The position numbers were made by a program, and so were the translations under genes. A DNA stretch of 26,185 nt from Eubacteriales bacterium (GTDB lineage: Bacteria > Bacillota > Clostridia > Oscillospirales > CAG-272): NCBI GenBank assembly GCA_045596585.1, contig JAZOCP010000166.1, positions 1-26,185 of the forward strand, in the 5' to 3' direction. Position 1 is the first letter of the stretch; each line of letters begins with the position of its first letter. Shown here piece after piece: positions 2,251-26,185 of this stretch. Below the pieces are notes generated by a model. It was not told where the DNA came from, did not search any database, and saw only the letters and a list, made by a program, of their open reading frames with translations.

Positions 2251-5200
2251 TTATTTCTTTTTGTCATAATCGAGAATGAGGTCAGGATTTAGCTTCTTAT
2301 ACTCTTCGTATGTGAGCATACCAAACTCTTGTCTTCTTCTTGAAAGCTCATCATCGATAACTGATACATATTCAAGAAGTGCGTCAGATGCGTCCTTGCC
2401 CTCGTTGTAAGCATCAAGGAATGCGAAGTTGACATAACGAGCAAGATAATAGCTACCTGGGTGGTTAGGAACTGCTGCAAGATGTTCAAACTGCTCAGCT
2501 ATGCTATTTCTTTCCTCAGCTGTCCATGGAAGTGAGTAAAGTGCCTCTTTGTTAGCTGTTGCAGGTCTTGCTGCGATACCAAGGATTGATACGATTTCGT
2601 TTGCGTAGTCTGCTTGGAACTCGCTACCTGTGTACCATCTCATAAATTCCCAAGCACAAGCCTGTTTTCTTGATTGTTCATTCAATTTGCTTTCATTTTT
2701 CAGCTTGTTATTTTTAATCATAACACAGCCAGTAACTGTTGCCATTGCTGAGTTATCAATGTACTCATTTCCGTTTTCATCAACTCTTACATGACCTGGA
2801 AGAGGAACAAAGGTCCAAAGACCTGAAAGCTCAGATGCGAAAACTGAAAGCTGGTTACATGATGTGTATGCTGAAATACCGATTGGCATTTCGCCTGTAC
2901 GGAAACGGTTAGCAAAGTCATATGTATAAGGAAGTGAATATTGTGTATAGTAGTTACACATTTGCTCAAATGAGTTAAGAACGCCATTTGACCCAAAGTT
3001 AATTCTCATACCACCATCTGCATATGCCTCATTTCCGTTTTGATACATAAAGGTATATGCATCATTTTGGATACCAATCTCCATGTTGTTAAACTGGAGA
3101 ACCGGAAGGATAGCGAGCATATCATCCCATGTTTTTGGTGTTTCAAGCTCAAGGGATGAAAGAACGTCCTTACGATAGAACATCATTGAGAATGTTAAAG
3201 AGTCTGGCAATGCATAGAGCTGAATGCCCTGCTGAGCATCTGAATTTTTCCAGTCATAGCCATATCTCTTGTCATCTGATGGGTTGGTTCTTGAGCCATT
3301 TGTGTCGATTTGATTCTTCTCATAATCTCTCCACAAATAGAGGTTATCACTTTCATTTGCCCAATTGTAGCCATCTCCATAACCAAAGTTATAAAGAGTA
3401 AGTGGCTCAAATGCAGCCTCTGGGAAAACCTCCCTTATATCGTCCTTTATGCCTGCCTCTTCGTCTGATGTGTCTCTTATATCAGCATTGATAAAGTTGT
3501 TTAGTGGCTCAATTGCATCACGGAGAGCATAGTCTATGATAGTAGAGCTTGCTTCCATTAAAGATACTTGAGGTCCTACACCAGCAATAATTGATGGAAG
3601 CAATGTACCTCCCGCAATAAGCTTAATTTCAACACCGACCTTAATATTTTCTTCGGACTTTTCTTTAAGAGTTCCATTTTCCGTTATATTATATTTGATA
3701 TTTAACTCATTAGGAGTAAAATCGTTTTCAATAAGGTTTCTTATGATTTGTGCCTGGTCACGGCCTGTTACTACCCATACCGCGATAGTTTCATCCACAC
3801 CACCATTTGGATTGTCTTTCTTTACATCATATTTATTTCCTATAAAGGAAGCAAAGAATAGCTTAATCTCAAACCAAAGGGCTTCGAAGAAGTTTGCATC
3901 AGCCTTAGGTAAATCCTCTTCTTGTGATTGTAGTCTATAATAGTCAACTTGAAGTGGTTGGGTCTTTGCGCTATTGATCCATGTACCTAAAGAACCGATT
4001 TGTGATTTTAGTGTTGCGAGGTTAGCTGGAATTTCTCCCTCGTTTGTCGCCATTTTTTCAAGTAATTGATATACTTGTTTAATTGTAGCGGTCTTTTCGC
4101 CTTCACCTGTACCGCCATCCTGCTTGTTTACGGAAACTAAGTACTCATAAACACTCTCAAGGTTTTGAGCCTCAAGAAGCATTACCTTTAATACGTCAGG
4201 CATTACTCTTGTAAAGCCATAGGAACGGTTAGGGTCTGGGTCTGTACCTGTTAGCTTGATAATTTCAAGATAGCAGTTATTTATGTTAGCAAGTGACTCG
4301 CTAACCTGCTTGATTTGTTCACCCATTTCGCCAAGGGTAACCTCAAGCTTAATTTCGTATGTTTTGCCTTCCTCAAAGTAGAACTCAAAGTCTCTATCAC
4401 CATTGTTTAAGAAGTCTGTTTGCCATGAGTTTGAGTAGTTAAAGCGACAATTTGCCGCCTCAGCAAATGGAACCTCTCCATTGATGTAAAGCTTTCTTGA
4501 TACGTACATACCACTAAGGAGTGCCTGCTTATATCTAACTGCGATTGAATAGAAGCCTGTTTTATCAACCTCGATTTCATAGCTCATCCATTCGCCAACA
4601 TTTTGCCATTGCTCCTTACCAGCTGTGTTGTACTTAACCTGCGAAGCGCTTTGCTTACCTGTCAAGCCTTGAGTAATAGCTGATGTTCTGTCATATACAG
4701 GGTAAATTGTAATTGCAGAAACGTTATCTGGCGCTTCTGCTTGAATATACTTATTAAGATCTACTCTATTATTGTCAGGTGTTGCGTTGTATTTCTCTTT
4801 TATTTGCTTAAGGTACTCATTATATGAGATAGGTGCCTTATATGGGCGAAGTGTGATTGATTGAACAACCATACCCTCTCTTTGACCTTCAAGAGAAATA
4901 GTGTTTTCACCTGGCTGAATATAGAATTGGAATGGGTCTGCATAATAACCATTCGCATCGGAAATTGTATATTCTACCCATGTTGGCTCAGTTGAGAGTG
5001 AAGGACGAATATCATCACCCTTATTGTTCTCTTTCTCATTTTTAAAGGTTAGCTTTCCATCAACCTCGAGGTAATCATACTTCCAAACCTTGTTAAGGAC
5101 AAGAGTACGTGCCTCGGCAAATGGGAAATTACCATTTAAATAGAAAATACGCTCAATTGCGTTTGAGGTATCTCTATCAATTTCCTTTTCAAGAGCCTCC

Positions 5201-18005: not shown

Positions 18006-18089
18006 ATGAAAATTGTTATTTTTAAATCACCAAGGCTTCTTGTTCCGTTTCTTAGGCGAATCTTTAAAATCTCAAAAGGCGACAAATAG
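18006..18089 (+). CDS. spoVM: Stage V sporulation protein M (27 aa), missed by the ORF track
   Basis: MKIVIFKSPRLLVPFLRRIFKISKGDK aligns without gaps to B. subtilis SpoVM (K2, K7, P9, K/R10, L12, R17); SD-like GGAAGGGTG; terminator immediately downstream. Confidence 0.85.
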   Translation: MKIVIFKSPRLLVPFLRRIFKISKGDK

Positions 18090-19881: not shown

Positions 19882-19911
19882 AGGCTATCGAGTTATCGAT
19901 AGCCTTTTTTT
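19882..19911 (+). terminator. Perfect 10-bp stem-loop with its T-tract on the + strand (antisense to both flanking genes)
   Basis: AGGCTATCGA-gtta-TCGATAGCCT-TTTTTT; on the coding (-) strand it is followed by AACTAATAAAGGAG, with no U-tract. Confidence 0.5.
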
Positions 19912-20575
19912 ATTCTCTTATTAGCTCGTATGTGCCATCTTTAAGGATTTTTATTAACTCTTCCATGCTTTTAATTTCATACTCGGTTCTTATACCAGCA
20001 TTGGCAGGAACGTGGTTGTAATGAAAATCAGTTCCTGAGGTTTTAATTAAGCCATATTTTTCTGCCCATAGATTTGCAATTTCATTTCTTGAGTCGTGAC
20101 CCTTGTGTCCATTATAAACCTCAACACCATCAAGAAGGTCTGGGCGAACTATTTTCATTGAATTTCTAAATGGGTGTGCTTGAATAAATAAAAGACCGTT
20201 TTCTCTTGCAATTTTAGAAAAGCTCTCTGGGTTTAAATCAAACAATCCCTCGTTTTCGCGCAAGAATTTTTCGTCAATTCCAAAAACTAAATAGTCGTTT
20301 GAATTTTCCTTAAATCTAAGCTCCATTGCGAGCAGAACTATTAGCTTACCCTCAGCATCTCTTTTTAAATCCTCATAGCCCTTTAGATAAGCAGTAACAA
20401 AGGCTTGGTAGTCATTATCACATTTATGAAAGCACTGTGTACCATAATTAAAATGGTTAGAAAGCACTAAGGTTTTATAGCCAGCCTCGGTATATTTTTG
20501 AATAATTTCCTCGTTTGATACGCTTGCACACTCACTTACGCTTTTTGAGTGGCAATGCAATTCTGTCTTGAACAT
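19910..20575 (-). CDS. PHP-domain phosphoesterase
   Basis: ELHCHS, VLSNH, AMELR, QAHPFR, VEVYNGH and GTDFH metal-ligand motifs. ATG 20575 preferred (SD AAAGGAG). Confidence 0.88.
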   Translation of the reverse strand: MFKTELHCHSKSVSECASVSNEEIIQKYTEAGYKTLVLSNHFNYGTQCFHKCDNDYQAFVTAYLKGYEDLKRDAEGKLIVLLAMELRFKENSNDYLVFGIDEKFLRENEGLFDLNPESFSKIARENGLLFIQAHPFRNSMKIVRPDLLDGVEVYNGHKGHDSRNEIANLWAEKYGLIKTSGTDFHYNHVPANAGIRTEYEIKSMEELIKILKDGTYELIRE

Positions 20576-20648
20576 TTTTTCTCCTTTTGCCATTTTGTAA
20601 ATTGGAGCTATGTGTGCTTTTTTATTTAAAATCGCACACAGGGTTCAC

Positions 20649-21581
20649 TTATTTCCATTTTGGTTTGTTTTTTAAAGTTGTATAAAGCTCACAATAGCTT
20701 TGATGTCTTGTGGCTTCAATTTTCCCCTCTTTAACAAGTGAAATAACCTTGCAGCCATCCTCCTTTGTGTGAGAGCATTTTGTATATTTGCACTCACCCA
20801 CGCACTCCTTAAAATCTCTAAAGGTATCAAATAAATCCTCAAGAGAAAAGAAATCAAAGCGCTCAAAATCAAGAAGTGAAAAGCCTGGGGTGTCGGCTAA
20901 ATAGCCATTATATTCCTCGCCTAAAAGCTCACTAAGTGGGAACAGCTCTGTATGACGAGTAGTGTTTTTTCCCCTCTCTATTTTCTCACTTAAATCTCCA
21001 GTTTGAAGGTTCAAGGTTGGGAAAAGTACATTCATAAGTGTGCTTTTTCCAGCACCCGAGGCGCCTGCGAATGCACAAATAGGAGCATTATCCTTGGTAA
21101 TTTCCTTTAAGAACTCACAAAGTGGGGTAGTGCCCATTTGTAGCTGTGAAGATGTGATAAAGGTTTTAAAGCCACTATTTTTATAAATGTTATAAATTTT
21201 CTCGCTAAATTCACTATCAAGGTCTGATTTTGAAATTACAATGACTGGCTCAATTTTATTATACTCAGCTATTGAAATCATTTTATCAACTATAAAAAGC
21301 GAGGGGGTTGGTTTTTTTGATGAAATTACTATAAATATGTAATCAAGGTTAGCAAGAGGTGGACGAATAAGGGAATTTTTTCTTTCAAGAATTCTTTTTG
21401 AGAAAAATGTGCCCTCGCTTGTCGGCTCAACCTCTATTCTATCTCCTGCCAAAAGCAGAGTTTTTTCATAACGAAATGAGCCTCTACCTCTTACAGTTAC
21501 ATATTCCTCATCATTATATTTCGAGTCAAGACGGACAGTATATAGTCCACCAACTCCTTTTATAACTGTTCCTTTTATCAT
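20649..21581 (-). CDS. rsgA: Ribosome small subunit-dependent GTPase A (CpgA)
   Basis: Circularly permuted GTPase motif order SKSDL, GASGAGKST, GKNTTRH, DTPGF; Zn finger CKYTKCSHTKEDGC. Confidence 0.96.
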   Translation of the reverse strand: MIKGTVIKGVGGLYTVRLDSKYNDEEYVTVRGRGSFRYEKTLLLAGDRIEVEPTSEGTFFSKRILERKNSLIRPPLANLDYIFIVISSKKPTPSLFIVDKMISIAEYNKIEPVIVISKSDLDSEFSEKIYNIYKNSGFKTFITSSQLQMGTTPLCEFLKEITKDNAPICAFAGASGAGKSTLMNVLFPTLNLQTGDLSEKIERGKNTTRHTELFPLSELLGEEYNGYLADTPGFSLLDFERFDFFSLEDLFDTFRDFKECVGECKYTKCSHTKEDGCKVISLVKEGKIEATRHQSYCELYTTLKNKPKWK

Positions 21582-22528
21582 TTGTCCTTCTTTTGAAAAA
21601 ATCTTTTTACTCTGCCCCAGAAATTCTGCATAGCAGTATTTGAAGGGAGCTCATCAAATTTTATTTTTTTGTCTGATTGGAAACGCTTAATATAATTTAA
21701 CATTTCATCTGCTGTTTGGAAACGATTTGCTGGGTCCTTGCTCATTGCACACATAATAATTTGCTCAAGTCCGATAGGAATTGATGGGTTTACCTGTCTT
21801 GGCGGAACAGGCTCCTCTTGTATGTGCTTATATAGAACCTGTAACGGTGTTTCGCCCTTGAATGGTGTGCGTCCAGTTGCAAGCTCATACATCATAGCAC
21901 CAAGGGAATAAATATCACTTCTTGTGTCTATGTTTTTCTTTCCACTTGCTTGCTCTGGACTCATATAATAAACAGTTCCTACTGCCTTATCTGTAACTGT
22001 AATTGTTTCAGCATCTGGTAGCTTTGCAATACCAAAATCCATGACCTTTATGCGTCCATTTTCAAGAACCATAATGTTTTGTGGCTTGATATCTCTATGA
22101 ATTATGCCATTACGATGTGCCTCAGAAAGCGCACGAAGAATTTGTGCTGTGTAGCTTGCAATTTCGTCCGTTCTTAATGGCTCTCCCTTTGCTGTCATAT
22201 AGCTCTTTAGAGTAATGCCATAAAGGAACTCCATTACCATATATTTAATTCTGCCCTTTATTGAAACATTGTGGACTGCAACAATATTATTGTGCTTTAA
22301 TGTGCCCTCTGCCTTTGACTCGTTTTTAAATCTCTTTACTACTATCTCGTCAGTAGCTACATCGTCCTTTAGGATTTTAATTGCCACGGTCATATTGTTA
22401 AGGTAGGTATCTCTGGCTCTAAACACAACAGCCATTCCACCGACACCTATTAGCTTGTCGATAATATATCTATCGTCAAGTATTTTATTCTCGTATTGCT
22501 TATATTTCTCGTATTTATCTTTTGACAT
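21578..22528 (-). CDS. prkC: Hanks-type Ser/Thr kinase in the PrkC/Stk1 position; kinase domain only
   Basis: GVGGMAVV, VAIKILK, HRDIKPQN, DFGIA and GTVYYMSPEQ motifs; lies between a PP2C gene and rsgA; only 316 aa. Confidence 0.9.
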   Translation of the reverse strand: MSKDKYEKYKQYENKILDDRYIIDKLIGVGGMAVVFRARDTYLNNMTVAIKILKDDVATDEIVVKRFKNESKAEGTLKHNNIVAVHNVSIKGRIKYMVMEFLYGITLKSYMTAKGEPLRTDEIASYTAQILRALSEAHRNGIIHRDIKPQNIMVLENGRIKVMDFGIAKLPDAETITVTDKAVGTVYYMSPEQASGKKNIDTRSDIYSLGAMMYELATGRTPFKGETPLQVLYKHIQEEPVPPRQVNPSIPIGLEQIIMCAMSKDPANRFQTADEMLNYIKRFQSDKKIKFDELPSNTAMQNFWGRVKRFFQKKDK

Positions 22529-22545
22529 ATTGGCAACCTCCCCCC

Positions 22546-23322
22546 CTAAATTCTTACAAGTAGTGCAGTTATGTTGTCATATCCGCCATTTTCATTTGCT
22601 GTGTCAATAAGTCTTCTTACCTTGAGGTCAAGCTCTACCTGATCTACGCGTGATGCATTGCGCTCATTTGAAACTATATCACAAATTGTCGCCTCATCTA
22701 CCATATTAGTTAAGCCGTCTGTGCATAGTAGCAAATAGCTACCCTCCTCGAGCTTTACAGTGTAAATATCACCCTCAACAAAAATTTCAGTACCAACTGC
22801 TCTTGTTATAATATTCTTTTTTGAGGAGCTTTCAGCCTCCTCCTTAGTCATTTTTCCTTGGTCAACCAAAAGCTGAACAAAGGAATGGTCCTTTGTGATT
22901 TGTCTAATTGTACTACCCTTTAATGAGTATAAACGGCTATCACCTACATTTATGCAAAATAGCACCTTGTCAATTATAAGTGCGCCAACGAGCGTTGTAC
23001 CCATATTTTTGTGGTCCTTACTACTTTTAGCAGTTAGATAAACCTTTTCATTGGCTATGTCAACACCTCTTGCAAGTGCTCTTTTTATATCGCTTGTGCT
23101 TACTTGTCTGTCTCTGTTTCTAAGGTATGGAATAATAAATTGGTCAACAGTATGTACAAATTCCTTTGCTGCAATAGCTGATGCCTCTTCTCCACCCTTG
23201 GCACCGCCCATACCATCACATACCACGCAAAGGGTTGTTTTTTCAGTATATTTGCGAAGCATATAATTGTCCTGATTATTTTCGCGCTTCATGCCCGCAT
23301 TTGTATCAGCTGAACAAATCAT
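22546..23322 (-). CDS. prpC: PP2C-family Ser/Thr phosphatase (PrpC/Stp1)
   Basis: RENNQD, VCDGMGG, MGTT, NVGDSRLY, TKDHS, NIITRAVG, CTDGLT and GYDNIT motifs. Confidence 0.95.
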   Translation of the reverse strand: MICSADTNAGMKRENNQDNYMLRKYTEKTTLCVVCDGMGGAKGGEEASAIAAKEFVHTVDQFIIPYLRNRDRQVSTSDIKRALARGVDIANEKVYLTAKSSKDHKNMGTTLVGALIIDKVLFCINVGDSRLYSLKGSTIRQITKDHSFVQLLVDQGKMTKEEAESSSKKNIITRAVGTEIFVEGDIYTVKLEEGSYLLLCTDGLTNMVDEATICDIVSNERNASRVDQVELDLKVRRLIDTANENGGYDNITALLVRI

Positions 23323-24368
23323 TTATTCTCCTCCTTTGCACCTTTTCTTAATTGTCCACACGAGGCATTTATGTCAGAGCCAAGACGACGTCTGACCGTT
23401 GCATTTATGCCAAGTGAAATTAGCTTGTTTTTAAAGCCTGTCACATTTTTAGAGGTGGAAAGCTTTGTTTCCTTAACCTCGTTTAATGGAATTAGGTTTA
23501 CGTGACATGGCGAATGTATATACTTTTTAATAATTGCGGCCAAACGACAAGCACCCTCTATTGTATCGTTTTTGCCCTCTATCAAGGTGTACTCAAATGA
23601 GATACGTCTTGATGTTTTTTCAAAATATTTTTGGCATGCTGTAAGCAATTTTTCAATTGGGTATTTTTTGTTTACAGGCATAATTTCGCTTCTTACATCG
23701 TTATCATAAGCGTGTAGAGAAATTGAGAGTGTAATTGGCAAGCCCTCACCTGACAATCTCTCAATTTTGTCAACTAAGCCACAGGTAGAAACGGAAATAT
23801 GGCGAAGCCCAATATTAAGTCCATTTTCTGAGCTTACAAGATGTAAAAATTTTATTGTGTTATCGTAGTTATCAAGTGGCTCACCTATTCCCATCATAAC
23901 AACATTGGAAATACGCTCACCTGTATCTTTTTCGGCAGAAATTATTTGTCCAAGCATTTCAGATGGAGCTAAATCTCTTGTCTTTCCAAGCAAGGTTGAG
24001 GCGCAAAACTTGCAGCCCATTAGGCAACCAACCTGTGAGGAAATACACAGTGTGTTTCCGTGCTCATATCTCATAAACACAGACTCTATAAGCTCTCCGT
24101 CATAAAGCTTAAACAAATATTTAATTGTGCCATCAATTGAAGAAACGAGCTTTCTTTCAACGCTTGGTAGCTTGTAAATAAAATGCTCCTCGAGCTTTTG
24201 GCGTAGCTGTAGGGGGATGTTTCTCATTTCCTCACCCCATGCGCCCTTATTTATCCAGCCAAAGACTTGCTTTGCACGGAATTTAGGCTCACCAAGGCTT
24301 ATAATTTCTTTTTCAAGCTCCTCATAAGAGAGCGATAAAATATCAATTTTTTGAAGGCTATTCGTCAT
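23319..24368 (-). CDS. rlmN: 23S rRNA m2A2503 methyltransferase RlmN
   Basis: CISSQVGCLMGCKFC (radical SAM), VMMGIGEPLDN, SLH, FEY and DINASCGQL motifs. Confidence 0.96.
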   Translation of the reverse strand: MTNSLQKIDILSLSYEELEKEIISLGEPKFRAKQVFGWINKGAWGEEMRNIPLQLRQKLEEHFIYKLPSVERKLVSSIDGTIKYLFKLYDGELIESVFMRYEHGNTLCISSQVGCLMGCKFCASTLLGKTRDLAPSEMLGQIISAEKDTGERISNVVMMGIGEPLDNYDNTIKFLHLVSSENGLNIGLRHISVSTCGLVDKIERLSGEGLPITLSISLHAYDNDVRSEIMPVNKKYPIEKLLTACQKYFEKTSRRISFEYTLIEGKNDTIEGACRLAAIIKKYIHSPCHVNLIPLNEVKETKLSTSKNVTGFKNKLISLGINATVRRRLGSDINASCGQLRKGAKEENK

Positions 24369-25665
24369 CTTTTTTTCTTATTCTCGCCACGAAAAAACCA
24401 TCTGTTTTGGTAATGTGTGGAAAGAAGGTATAGCCTCCTTTTGTTGATTTTATATCACCTAACTCAAAGTCAAACGCTTCAAAGTCGTCATTTTCAAGTA
24501 GGAATTTTTCTATGATGTTTTCATTTTCCGCTTTGTTGAGCGTACAAGTGGAATAAACCAAGATTCCACCCTTTTTAAGATATTTTGACGAGGTTGTCAA
24601 AATGTCATACTGAACTGCGGGTAAATTAAGATACGCTTCTGTTGATTTATATTTTATGTCTGGCTTTTTGAAAATCACGCCAAGTCCAGAGCAAGGTACA
24701 TCACATAAAACTCTATCATATTTTTCTTTGCTTTCCTCTTGATATTCCTTTGCGTTTTGTACCCTTGTAGAAATAATATCTATGCCGAGCCTTTTAGCTC
24801 CCTTTTCTACAAGTGAGAGCTTACTTTTATGCAGGTCGGATGAATGTAGCTCACCCTTGTTTTGCATATCAATAGCAACACTAAAGCTTTTGCCACCTGG
24901 GCAAGCGCAAACATCTGCTACTATTTCATTTGGCATAGCACCAATGACTATACTTGCTATACGTGAGGACTCATCTTGTACAAAGGCCTCTCCAGCCTCA
25001 ATTAAGCCCTCAAGCCTTGAAATTGGAAGATTAGTTTTAATTATATCCTTTGCAATTTGCGATTTTTCCGCCTCGCCACCCATTTCCTTAATTTTAAGGA
25101 TTAGCTCATCTTGGCTTGTCCTTAATGTGTTAACACGCAAGCAAAGAGGGGATTTTTGTGGGGGGAGTGTGCAAATTTCCTCTGTTATTTTCTCACCATA
25201 GGAGTCTTTAAAGACCTCTATTAGCTCCATTGGAATTGAATATTCAAGTGATATTCTTTCAAATTTTTCTTTTGGCAGGTCATAAGCCTTGCCATCTCTT
25301 AGAAAGCTACGGAGAATGGCATTTACATAGCCCTTTGCCTTTTTAGGTGCAAGGTTAACGCTTTCGTCAACTGCACTATATTCAGGAATTTTATCTGTAA
25401 AAATAAGCTGATAAATACCTAAGCGAAGAATATTTTTAACCTCAGTATCAATTTCTTCAAGCTTCACCTTTGAATATTTTTTAATTATTGAATCAAGTAG
25501 TAGCTTTTTTTCAATTACGCCTAAGAATAGAAGCGTGTATAAGGAAATATCAATTTGTTGTGCATTTGCACGTGAGATAGCAGTATTTAATTCAATATTT
25601 GAATAAGCTCCATTCACTTCCCATTTAACAAGTGAATTTAACGCTGCTTCTCTTGGGTTGAACAT
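24358..25665 (-). CDS. rsmB: 16S rRNA m5C967 methyltransferase RsmB/Sun
   Basis: NusB-like N-terminus; VQDESS, DVCACPGGKS, DVPCSGLG, YSTCT and DGFFVA motifs. Confidence 0.96.
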   Translation of the reverse strand: MFNPREAALNSLVKWEVNGAYSNIELNTAISRANAQQIDISLYTLLFLGVIEKKLLLDSIIKKYSKVKLEEIDTEVKNILRLGIYQLIFTDKIPEYSAVDESVNLAPKKAKGYVNAILRSFLRDGKAYDLPKEKFERISLEYSIPMELIEVFKDSYGEKITEEICTLPPQKSPLCLRVNTLRTSQDELILKIKEMGGEAEKSQIAKDIIKTNLPISRLEGLIEAGEAFVQDESSRIASIVIGAMPNEIVADVCACPGGKSFSVAIDMQNKGELHSSDLHKSKLSLVEKGAKRLGIDIISTRVQNAKEYQEESKEKYDRVLCDVPCSGLGVIFKKPDIKYKSTEAYLNLPAVQYDILTTSSKYLKKGGILVYSTCTLNKAENENIIEKFLLENDDFEAFDFELGDIKSTKGGYTFFPHITKTDGFFVARIRKKDDE

Positions 25666-25686: not shown

Positions 25687-26185
25687 TTATCCTAAAATGT
25701 CGCCTACTGAAAGCTTTCTTCCGTTTATAAATGCTGATGCACTCATCTTGCCCTTACCCTCGGGAACAACCTCGTCAAGAGCTATTGCACCATCCTTGCA
25801 CATAACATAAATTGCGCCCTCAAGCGAAACGACCTCACCCACTTGTCCTTTAAAAGCAATGGGGGACGTGTGTGATTTTATGACCTTTAGAATTTTCGAA
25901 TCGGGCATTTTCGTAAATGCAACTGGTATTGGACTGAGTCCTCTTATTTGGTTATGAACCTCTTTTACTGTTTTTGAAAAATCAATTAAGCAATCAGCCT
26001 TTGTTATCTTTTCAGCATAAGTAAACACCTCGCCCTGTGGGGTGAAGGTTGCTTTGCCTTCCTTAAATAGGTCTATCGCCTTTAAAAGTCCCTTGCTACC
26101 TGCTAATATTAGCTTGTCATGTACTGTTTCAAAATTATCGTTTTCTAAAATGGAAACCTCTTCAACAAGTATTATATCGCCCGTG
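25687..26185 (-). CDS. fmt: Methionyl-tRNA formyltransferase, 3' part (5' end outside window)
   Basis: Frame stays open beyond the track's GTG 26028 to the window edge: TGDIILVEEVSI...HDKL...PQ...TYAEKITK...IDFSK...HNQIRGLSPIP; upstream of rsmB as in the canonical operon. Confidence 0.93.
   Translation of the reverse strand, partial: TGDIILVEEVSILENDNFETVHDKLILAGSKGLLKAIDLFKEGKATFTPQGEVFTYAEKITKADCLIDFSKTVKEVHNQIRGLSPIPVAFTKMPDSKILKVIKSHTSPIAFKGQVGEVVSLEGAIYVMCKDGAIALDEVVPEGKGKMSASAFINGRKLSVGDILG

Follow-up and report, generated by a model that had tools for sequence, protein, structure and literature searches.

PASTA kinases, such as PrkC of Bacillus subtilis, Stk1/PknB of Staphylococcus aureus, StkP of Streptococcus pneumoniae, IreK of Enterococcus faecalis and PknB of Mycobacterium tuberculosis, are studied as the Gram-positive link between cell-wall status and growth, beta-lactam tolerance and spore germination. 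In these proteins, a Hanks-type Ser/Thr kinase domain is connected by a disordered juxtamembrane region of 40-80 residues to a transmembrane (TM) helix and PASTA repeats. Their usual substrate, IreB/ReoM, is a small protein that controls MurA in Bacilli. The kinase gene lies in an operon with a gene for an Stp1-type PP2C phosphatase upstream and rsgA downstream, within the fmt-rsmB-rlmN cluster. The same arrangement is found in contig JAZOCP010000166.1 of assembly GCA_045596585.1 (26,185 nucleotides [nt]; 'the window' denotes this whole stretch of DNA), from a metagenome-assembled genome (MAG) of the order Oscillospirales. Here, as throughout a genus of uncultured gut Clostridia, PrkC is encoded without its membrane-spanning and sensor parts, and the product of 316 amino acids (aa) is almost certainly a functional PrkC orthologue that has become fixed without sensor and TM helix.

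Hanks kinases lacking one or the other of these parts are known from elsewhere. YabT of B. subtilis is anchored by a TM segment but has no extracellular sensor, and the soluble kinases PrkD/YbdM of B. subtilis and PknG/PknK of M. tuberculosis have no TM segment, as is the case for the window kinase. To our knowledge, these soluble kinases are not orthologues of the PrkC operon kinase, are encoded in other genomic contexts and have no known conserved terminal amphipathic helix. In B. subtilis PrkC, septal localisation depends solely on the TM segment, and in vitro activity is unaltered by deletion of the PASTA domains (PMC5786024). About 20 residues past the kinase domain of the same protein lies the juxtamembrane phosphosite region (T290), which is conserved to position +6 and required for trans-autoactivation (bioRxiv 10.1101/2025.11.01.686061). 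In the literature we found no description of a PrkC that is PASTA-less or anchored by an amphipathic helix, and no paper on a short form of this kind.

The catalytic domain of the window protein is closely related to those of the PASTA kinases. Its PF00069 match scores 170 bits against a cut-off of 31.7 (Pfam; Table 1), and the complete Hanks core is present (VAIK Lys, alpha-C Glu, HRD, catalytic-loop Asn, DFG and SPE). Residues K51, E70, H144-R145-D146, N151, D164-F165-G166 and S190-P191-E192 are invariant among 27 orthologues, as are the activation-loop threonines T175/T177/T179, which PASTA kinases also possess. The best matches in the PDB are the kinase domains of M. tuberculosis PknB (E 1e-62), S. 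aureus Stk1 (4eqm) and S. pneumoniae StkP; these alignments stop at residue 282, and hidden Markov model (HMM) and PDB alignments together end at 282-294. With an intact core and intact activation-loop threonines, the kinase most likely has catalytic activity that is counteracted by the Stp1-type phosphatase encoded next to it.

What follows the catalytic domain differs from the PASTA kinases. The best NCBIfam model, NF033483 ('Stk1 family PASTA kinase'), is covered only over profile positions 2-279 of 563, and the score of 387.3 bits lies below the 450-bit cut-off because the C-terminal half is missing. TM helices were called with a 19-residue Kyte-Doolittle window at a level of 1.5. None follows the kinase domain in the 316-aa protein, in which the maximum mean is 1.02, and no short form contains a TM-like window (at most 1.47, versus 2.0-3.5 in TM-bearing relatives). 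PASTA repeats (PF03793) gave no Pfam match in the protein. Judged by position and catalytic domain, the protein is a PrkC/Stk1 orthologue; since it falls short of the score cut-off and has neither TM helix nor PASTA repeat, it is an architectural variant of the PASTA kinases that stands outside NF033483. A first-pass annotation of the window, which had reported a 316-aa open reading frame (ORF) with all catalytic motifs and no TM stretch, is thus borne out by the ORF translation, Pfam, the invariance among orthologues and the Kyte-Doolittle profile.

The short architecture is a property of the genus. We examined 26 other genus orthologues (24 sampled first and two added), giving 27 sequences with the window protein. 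All 26 are short: the open frames encode 314-343 aa in each of the 24 species first sampled, at 61-89% identity, and the two further members agree. Genus genomes that are 95-97% complete and consist of 10-90 contigs carry the same architecture. The kinase frames of 16 other families of the same order encode 574-734 aa, and relatives within the family have kinases of 557-973 aa in most genera (sample of 150 family genomes). In a collection of 5.8 billion proteins, the best 120 clusters at 90% identity contain proteins of 311-338 aa, labelled only 'serine/threonine protein kinase' and originating from Clostridia or Ruminococcaceae MAGs. At 50% identity the whole short clade collapses into a single representative cluster (P0059), the nearest single-domain neighbours of which have 566-716 aa and 56-57% identity in a representative search dominated by multi-kinase proteins. 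In a maximum-likelihood tree of 81 kinase domains, from which duplicate domains and loci with a frame running off the contig were excluded, the 27 short forms constitute one clade (support 100/100, stem 0.42) among full-length family kinases. By this phylogeny, the short form is monophyletic and has a single origin. An ancestor with the order kinase-linker-TM-PASTA would have lost everything from the TM helix onward, leaving about 26 residues, namely the linker FDELPSNT and a cationic amphipathic helix at 299-316. In place of the long juxtamembrane region of PASTA kinases, only the eight linker residues stand before this helix.

The missing repeats are not supplied by another kinase. In the genome from which the window derives, PASTA occurs only in a class B penicillin-binding protein (PBP) adjoining murE, and across 50 genus genomes it is confined to two repeats in one PBP frame of about 745 aa, which is present in 22 of the 23 genomes that are at least 90% complete. 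Neither a second PASTA kinase nor a stand-alone PASTA sensor was found in the own genome or in the 50 genus genomes. The genus, an uncultured and cell-walled one of the Oscillospirales with sporulation genes, has this one kinase of the PrkC/Stk1/PknB type. These surveys support the earlier proposal that cell-wall sensing through the kinase's own PASTA domains has been lost; input via muropeptide or lipid II binding by such domains would be gone. The only other Pkinase match in the own genome was considered as a replacement and ruled out as unrelated. It is a 468-aa protein on contig C104 (1195-2601 [+] of locus L004) that has a degenerate Pkinase match and, at about residues 331-364, a zinc ribbon, whereas both TM helix and PASTA repeats are missing; its gene overlaps the start of a PP2C_2 phosphatase gene at 2598-3569 (+).

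The usual substrate was not found either. Unlike in organisms with PASTA kinases, IreB/ReoM (PF06135) was found in none of the 23 high-quality genus genomes and in only one of 50 genus genomes overall; of 148 other family genomes, 130 gave a match, among them those of every genus checked with a TM-only kinase (see below). As a single lineage event, the apparent absence of IreB from the genus is an association and not a statistic. A DivIVA/GpsB loss belonging to the same rewiring was considered and found to be non-specific, the domain being missing from the genus and also from about one-third of the family.

The C-terminal tail has a pattern that points to an amphipathic helix. In the window protein, F303, W304, V307, F310 and F311 occupy positions i, i+1, i+4, i+7 and i+8, exactly the register that the first-pass annotation had read, and K/R residues are found at 306, 308, 309 and 313-316. 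Tail length is almost fixed among the 27 orthologues, and the tail alignment is gapless in 26 of them, the remaining one having a single-residue insertion. Over 104 distinct tails, F291 and L294 are invariant, P295 is kept in 96% and F311 in 90%, and N302 in 98% (raw counts 99/104 = 95%). Large hydrophobic residues occupy 300, 303, 307, 310 and 311 in 85-100% of these tails and 304 in 76%; K/R residues recur at 306, 308, 309 and 313-318, and small residues (G/A/S) at 305. Hydrophobic periodicity is maximal at 100 degrees per residue (power 4.0 versus at most 1.6 outside 90-110 degrees), and the cationic vector is approximately opposite the hydrophobic vector.

Structure prediction and hydrophobic moments (muH; Fauchere-Pliska scale) agree with this pattern. 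With the 27-sequence alignment as input, AlphaFold2 predicts helical structure for residues 299-315, with block values of the predicted local distance difference test (pLDDT) of 83, 73 and 53 (mean pLDDT of the model, 85.8). The best 14-residue muH is 0.71 in the window protein and ranges from 0.56 to 0.82 over 25 genus loci, in which the last 22 residues carry a charge of +4 to +9. Among 1181 C-termini of the own genome, the window tail ranks 16th by hydrophobic moment and is one of only four with muH >= 0.70 and a net charge of at least +4. The conservation of the pattern over 104 tails is the stronger argument, because the terminal helices of globular proteins often have a high moment as well.

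The closest analogues in design are the C-terminal helices of MinD, FtsA, MreB and RNase E and the SpoVM peptide, all of them short terminal or autonomous helices with an aromatic or aliphatic face and flanking K/R residues. By prediction, the window tail conforms to the MinD/FtsA type, i.e. an amphipathic terminal helix with a hydrophobic face and flanking basic residues, and its muH equals or exceeds the values computed for MinD, FtsA and SpoVM sequences. The label 'MinD/FtsA-like', given earlier, is hence apt as an analogy of design and not as a statement of homology: the host protein is a different one, and membrane binding, demonstrated for the analogues, is only predicted for the window tail, in which N302 and the LP motif vary less than is typical of MinD/FtsA-type sequences. 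The own genome (73% complete) offers no positive controls for membrane-targeting sequences, because the MinD model (TIGR01968) gave only weak ParA-like matches and the FtsA model (TIGR01174) none.

On balance, we read the tail as a membrane anchor: the conserved, predicted amphipathic helix probably holds the kinase on the inner face of the membrane. Lying flat against the cytoplasmic leaflet, the helix would bury its F/W/I/L face, place its K/R residues on the head groups of anionic lipids and so replace the TM helix by a peripheral anchor that is reversible. Such anchoring would concentrate the kinase in two dimensions for trans-autophosphorylation and near membrane-proximal substrates. The principal argument comes from relatives that lost only the sensor. 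At least eight sister genera and several MAGs, including Eubacterium sp. CAG:841 (408 aa), have PASTA-less, TM-only kinases of 377-502 aa at the same locus and in the same family (e.g. L121, L124, L125, L126, L127, L128, L129, L131, L037 and others). The sensor can hence be lost while the kinase is kept. Unlike the window kinase, these proteins retain the long linker and a genuine, strong TM helix, past which the chain continues for only 23-42 residues; IreB is encoded in their genomes. In the tree they form two clades, both separate from the short clade, having arisen independently of it. The topology indicates that PASTA was lost at least three times in the family, the TM anchor being kept twice and an amphipathic helix standing at the anchor's place in the third lineage. 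Because the sister genera without PASTA all kept the TM helix, the tail is best explained as its replacement.

A possible source of the helix is visible in two relatives. L062 and L039 are full-length kinases (660 and 635 aa) whose juxtamembrane region is unusually short (about 27 aa) and holds EKFKKFFSKKFKK or EKLKGFFQKRL; the pattern K-[FL]-K-x-F-F-x-K-[KR], about eight residues ahead of the TM helix, resembles R-V-K-R-F-F-Q-K-K of the window protein. This cationic-aromatic segment is a plausible precursor of the tail, because its distance from the TM helix would put it at the membrane interface. The idea that the relatives in general already had an amphipathic helix in the juxtamembrane region was rejected: juxtamembrane regions were scored in 92 TM-bearing relatives (median length 50 aa), and only L043 has one with the properties of the tail, two more having a similar motif.

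Several observations weigh against a membrane anchor. High hydrophobic moments are common in C-terminal helices packed on globular domains. The conservation of L294, P295, N302 and F311 exceeds what a membrane-binding helix usually requires, which suggests a specific protein contact, and the near-invariant L294, P295 and N302 would fit protein docking equally well. The initial part of the helix has a pLDDT of 73-83, consistent with its docking on the kinase domain; dual coding with the rsgA ribosome-binding site accounts for part of the K-rich run at the terminus; and the similarity to L062 and L039 spans only about nine residues and could be convergent. We infer membrane binding, kinase activity and the nature of the input.

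It is accordingly possible, if doubtful, that the kinase is cytosolic and its tail a helix that regulates it or binds a partner. The tail may then be an extension of the juxtamembrane phosphosite motif known from the T290 region of B. subtilis PrkC, and could dock on the kinase lobe in cis or trans for autoactivation, or bind RsgA, the ribosome or the phosphatase. The near-invariance of the four residues just named speaks for such a contact, as do the pLDDT values of 73-83 over residues 291-310 and the LPS-N-[ST] linker, which aligns where order-level relatives have P-T-[KR]-[FY]-[VI], the motif needed for trans-autoactivation in B. subtilis (bioRxiv 10.1101/2025.11.01.686061). Translational coupling to rsgA within a ribosome-biogenesis operon fits as well, and the K/R-rich tail could bind rRNA. 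The linker FDELPSNT may itself be a remnant of the phosphosite motif. However, the candidate phosphosite is only loosely kept (Cys at 296 in 25% of the 104 tails and S/T at 298 in only 77%), which weakens a T290-like site as a conserved feature of the tail. Moreover, an aromatic face with flanking K/R and small polar residues on the opposite side is the usual make-up of a membrane-binding helix, every other PASTA-less relative keeps a TM anchor, and no homologous docking element is known, the HMM and PDB alignments ending before the helix.

A more speculative version of membrane anchoring, in either of two forms, strikes us as unlikely. In the first, Ser/Thr 296/298, just before the helix, could be the remnant of the juxtamembrane autophosphorylation site (T290 in B. 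subtilis PrkC); its phosphorylation would place negative charge beside the cationic helix and release the kinase from the membrane, and this self-contained phospho-electrostatic switch would provide feedback between activity and localisation without an extracellular sensor. In the second, the SpoVM-like helix could sense membrane curvature or anionic-lipid content and target the kinase to septa or forespores. Either way, the PASTA-kinase pathway would have been rewired, and the loss of sensor, TM helix and IreB/ReoM would mark a shift towards lipid or ribosome-linked input and output.

We consider it quite unlikely that the tail is functionless, i.e. that the protein is a soluble truncated PrkC ending in juxtamembrane left-overs shaped by the rsgA ribosome-binding site. 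Soluble one-domain Hanks kinases do exist (e.g. PrkD/YbdM), and the last four to six codons do form the Shine-Dalgarno region of rsgA, with stop and start overlapping in 18 of 25 loci, but the periodic hydrophobic residues 300, 303, 304, 307, 310 and 311 lie upstream of the ribosome-binding-site codons, their periodicity is maintained over the 104 tails although the residues vary, and tail length hardly changes. There is next to no probability that the short ORF results from an assembly break or a frameshift, or that it is a recent pseudogene derived from a full-length PASTA kinase: the source genome is admittedly a fragmented MAG (1.72 Mb, 273 contigs, 73% complete; the window is its contig C166), but the gene is internal to a 26-kb contig with its stop overlapped by rsgA, the cluster of the exact protein includes 12 contigs (the longest 91 kb), all genus orthologues examined share the architecture, which is clade-wide and monophyletic, and no PASTA-coding DNA exists elsewhere but in the PBP, all of which strongly supports the evolved redesign proposed at first.

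If the tail binds membranes, the protein would be the first amphipathic-helix-anchored Hanks kinase that we have found described. While the kinase, the phosphatase and the operon were kept, the genus gave up the sensor, the TM helix and the long juxtamembrane linker, and apparently also the output through IreB/ReoM. This amounts to a natural experiment on what the pathway core does without muropeptide or lipid II sensing and on whether membrane proximity alone is essential. Sister genera provide a graded series from full-length through TM-only and amphipathic-tail forms to no kinase. At the far end of this series, about 30 of the 150 family genomes, many of them >95% complete, gave no kinase match at E <= 1e-40 (among them g21, g23, g29, g52, g53, g58, g59 and others), and several of the kinase-less genera are also without IreB; it seems that the family has lost the kinase more than once.

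The features of the locus are collected in Table 1. At the kinase-rsgA junction the stop codon TGA shares bases with the rsgA ATG (ATGA), GAAGGA lies 3 nt ahead of that ATG and, with rsgA following at once, no space is left for PASTA remnants (sequence and Pfam at the locus); the overlap, the GAAGGA and the missing remnants are as the first-pass annotation had stated. Among 25 genus loci, rsgA is directly 3' of the kinase gene in 23 and the ATGA overlap occurs in 18; in all 25, the last four to six kinase codons are purine-rich, encode Lys/Glu/Gly/Asp and double as the rsgA ribosome-binding site. Dual coding is seen at 21581-21600 (-) of the window and at the same place in L006-L029, the final AAA-TGA yielding the overlap, and may explain part of the terminal Lys run.

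Table 1. Features of the kinase operon in the window and the evidence for each.
Feature	Position	Strand	Evidence
fmt, C-terminal part (cut by window end)	25687-26184	-	Pfam, NCBIfam
rsmB	24358-25665	-	Pfam, NCBIfam
rlmN	23319-24368	-	Pfam, NCBIfam
Stp1/IreP-family PP2C phosphatase, kinase partner	22546-23322	-	NF033484, 249 bits vs cut-off 230
Kinase ribosome-binding site GGAGG, 8 nt ahead of ATG	22537-22541	-	Sequence
PrkC/Stk1-type short Ser/Thr kinase gene, 316 aa + stop	21578-22528	-	ORF translation, Pfam, NCBIfam
Hanks kinase catalytic domain, residues 22-277	21698-22465	-	Pfam PF00069, E 7e-50
Linker FDELPSNT, residues 291-298	21635-21658	-	Profile of 104 tails, alignment to relatives' juxtamembrane regions
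Predicted cationic amphipathic C-terminal helix, residues 299-316	21581-21634	-	AlphaFold2, muH, 104-tail profile
Kinase-rsgA translational coupling: GAAGGA 21585-21590, rsgA ATG 21579-21581, kinase TGA 21578-21580	21578-21590	-	Sequence
rsgA, ribosome small-subunit GTPase A	20649-21581	-	Pfam RsgA_GTPase + RsgA_N; TIGR00157

The bacteria of the genus probably sporulate, because the own genome and four genus genomes contain SpoIVA. The earlier statement that the organism still has spoVM holds only in part: a 27-aa SpoVM-like ORF exists at 18006-18089 (+), between genes for a pyrimidine-nucleoside phosphorylase and a glycosidase, but PF08183 does not recognise it. The ORF has no Pfam match at E <= 1, and the best genome-wide match to PF08183 (E 0.6) is located elsewhere. 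Its product starts with MKIVIFKSPRLL and ends with RRIFKISKGDK, and its C-terminal half resembles the tails of some genus kinases (RRIFGISKKK).

Downstream of rsgA (3'), the window encodes a 227-aa PHP-domain protein (19910-20593 [-]), at a place where B. subtilis has rpe and thiN.

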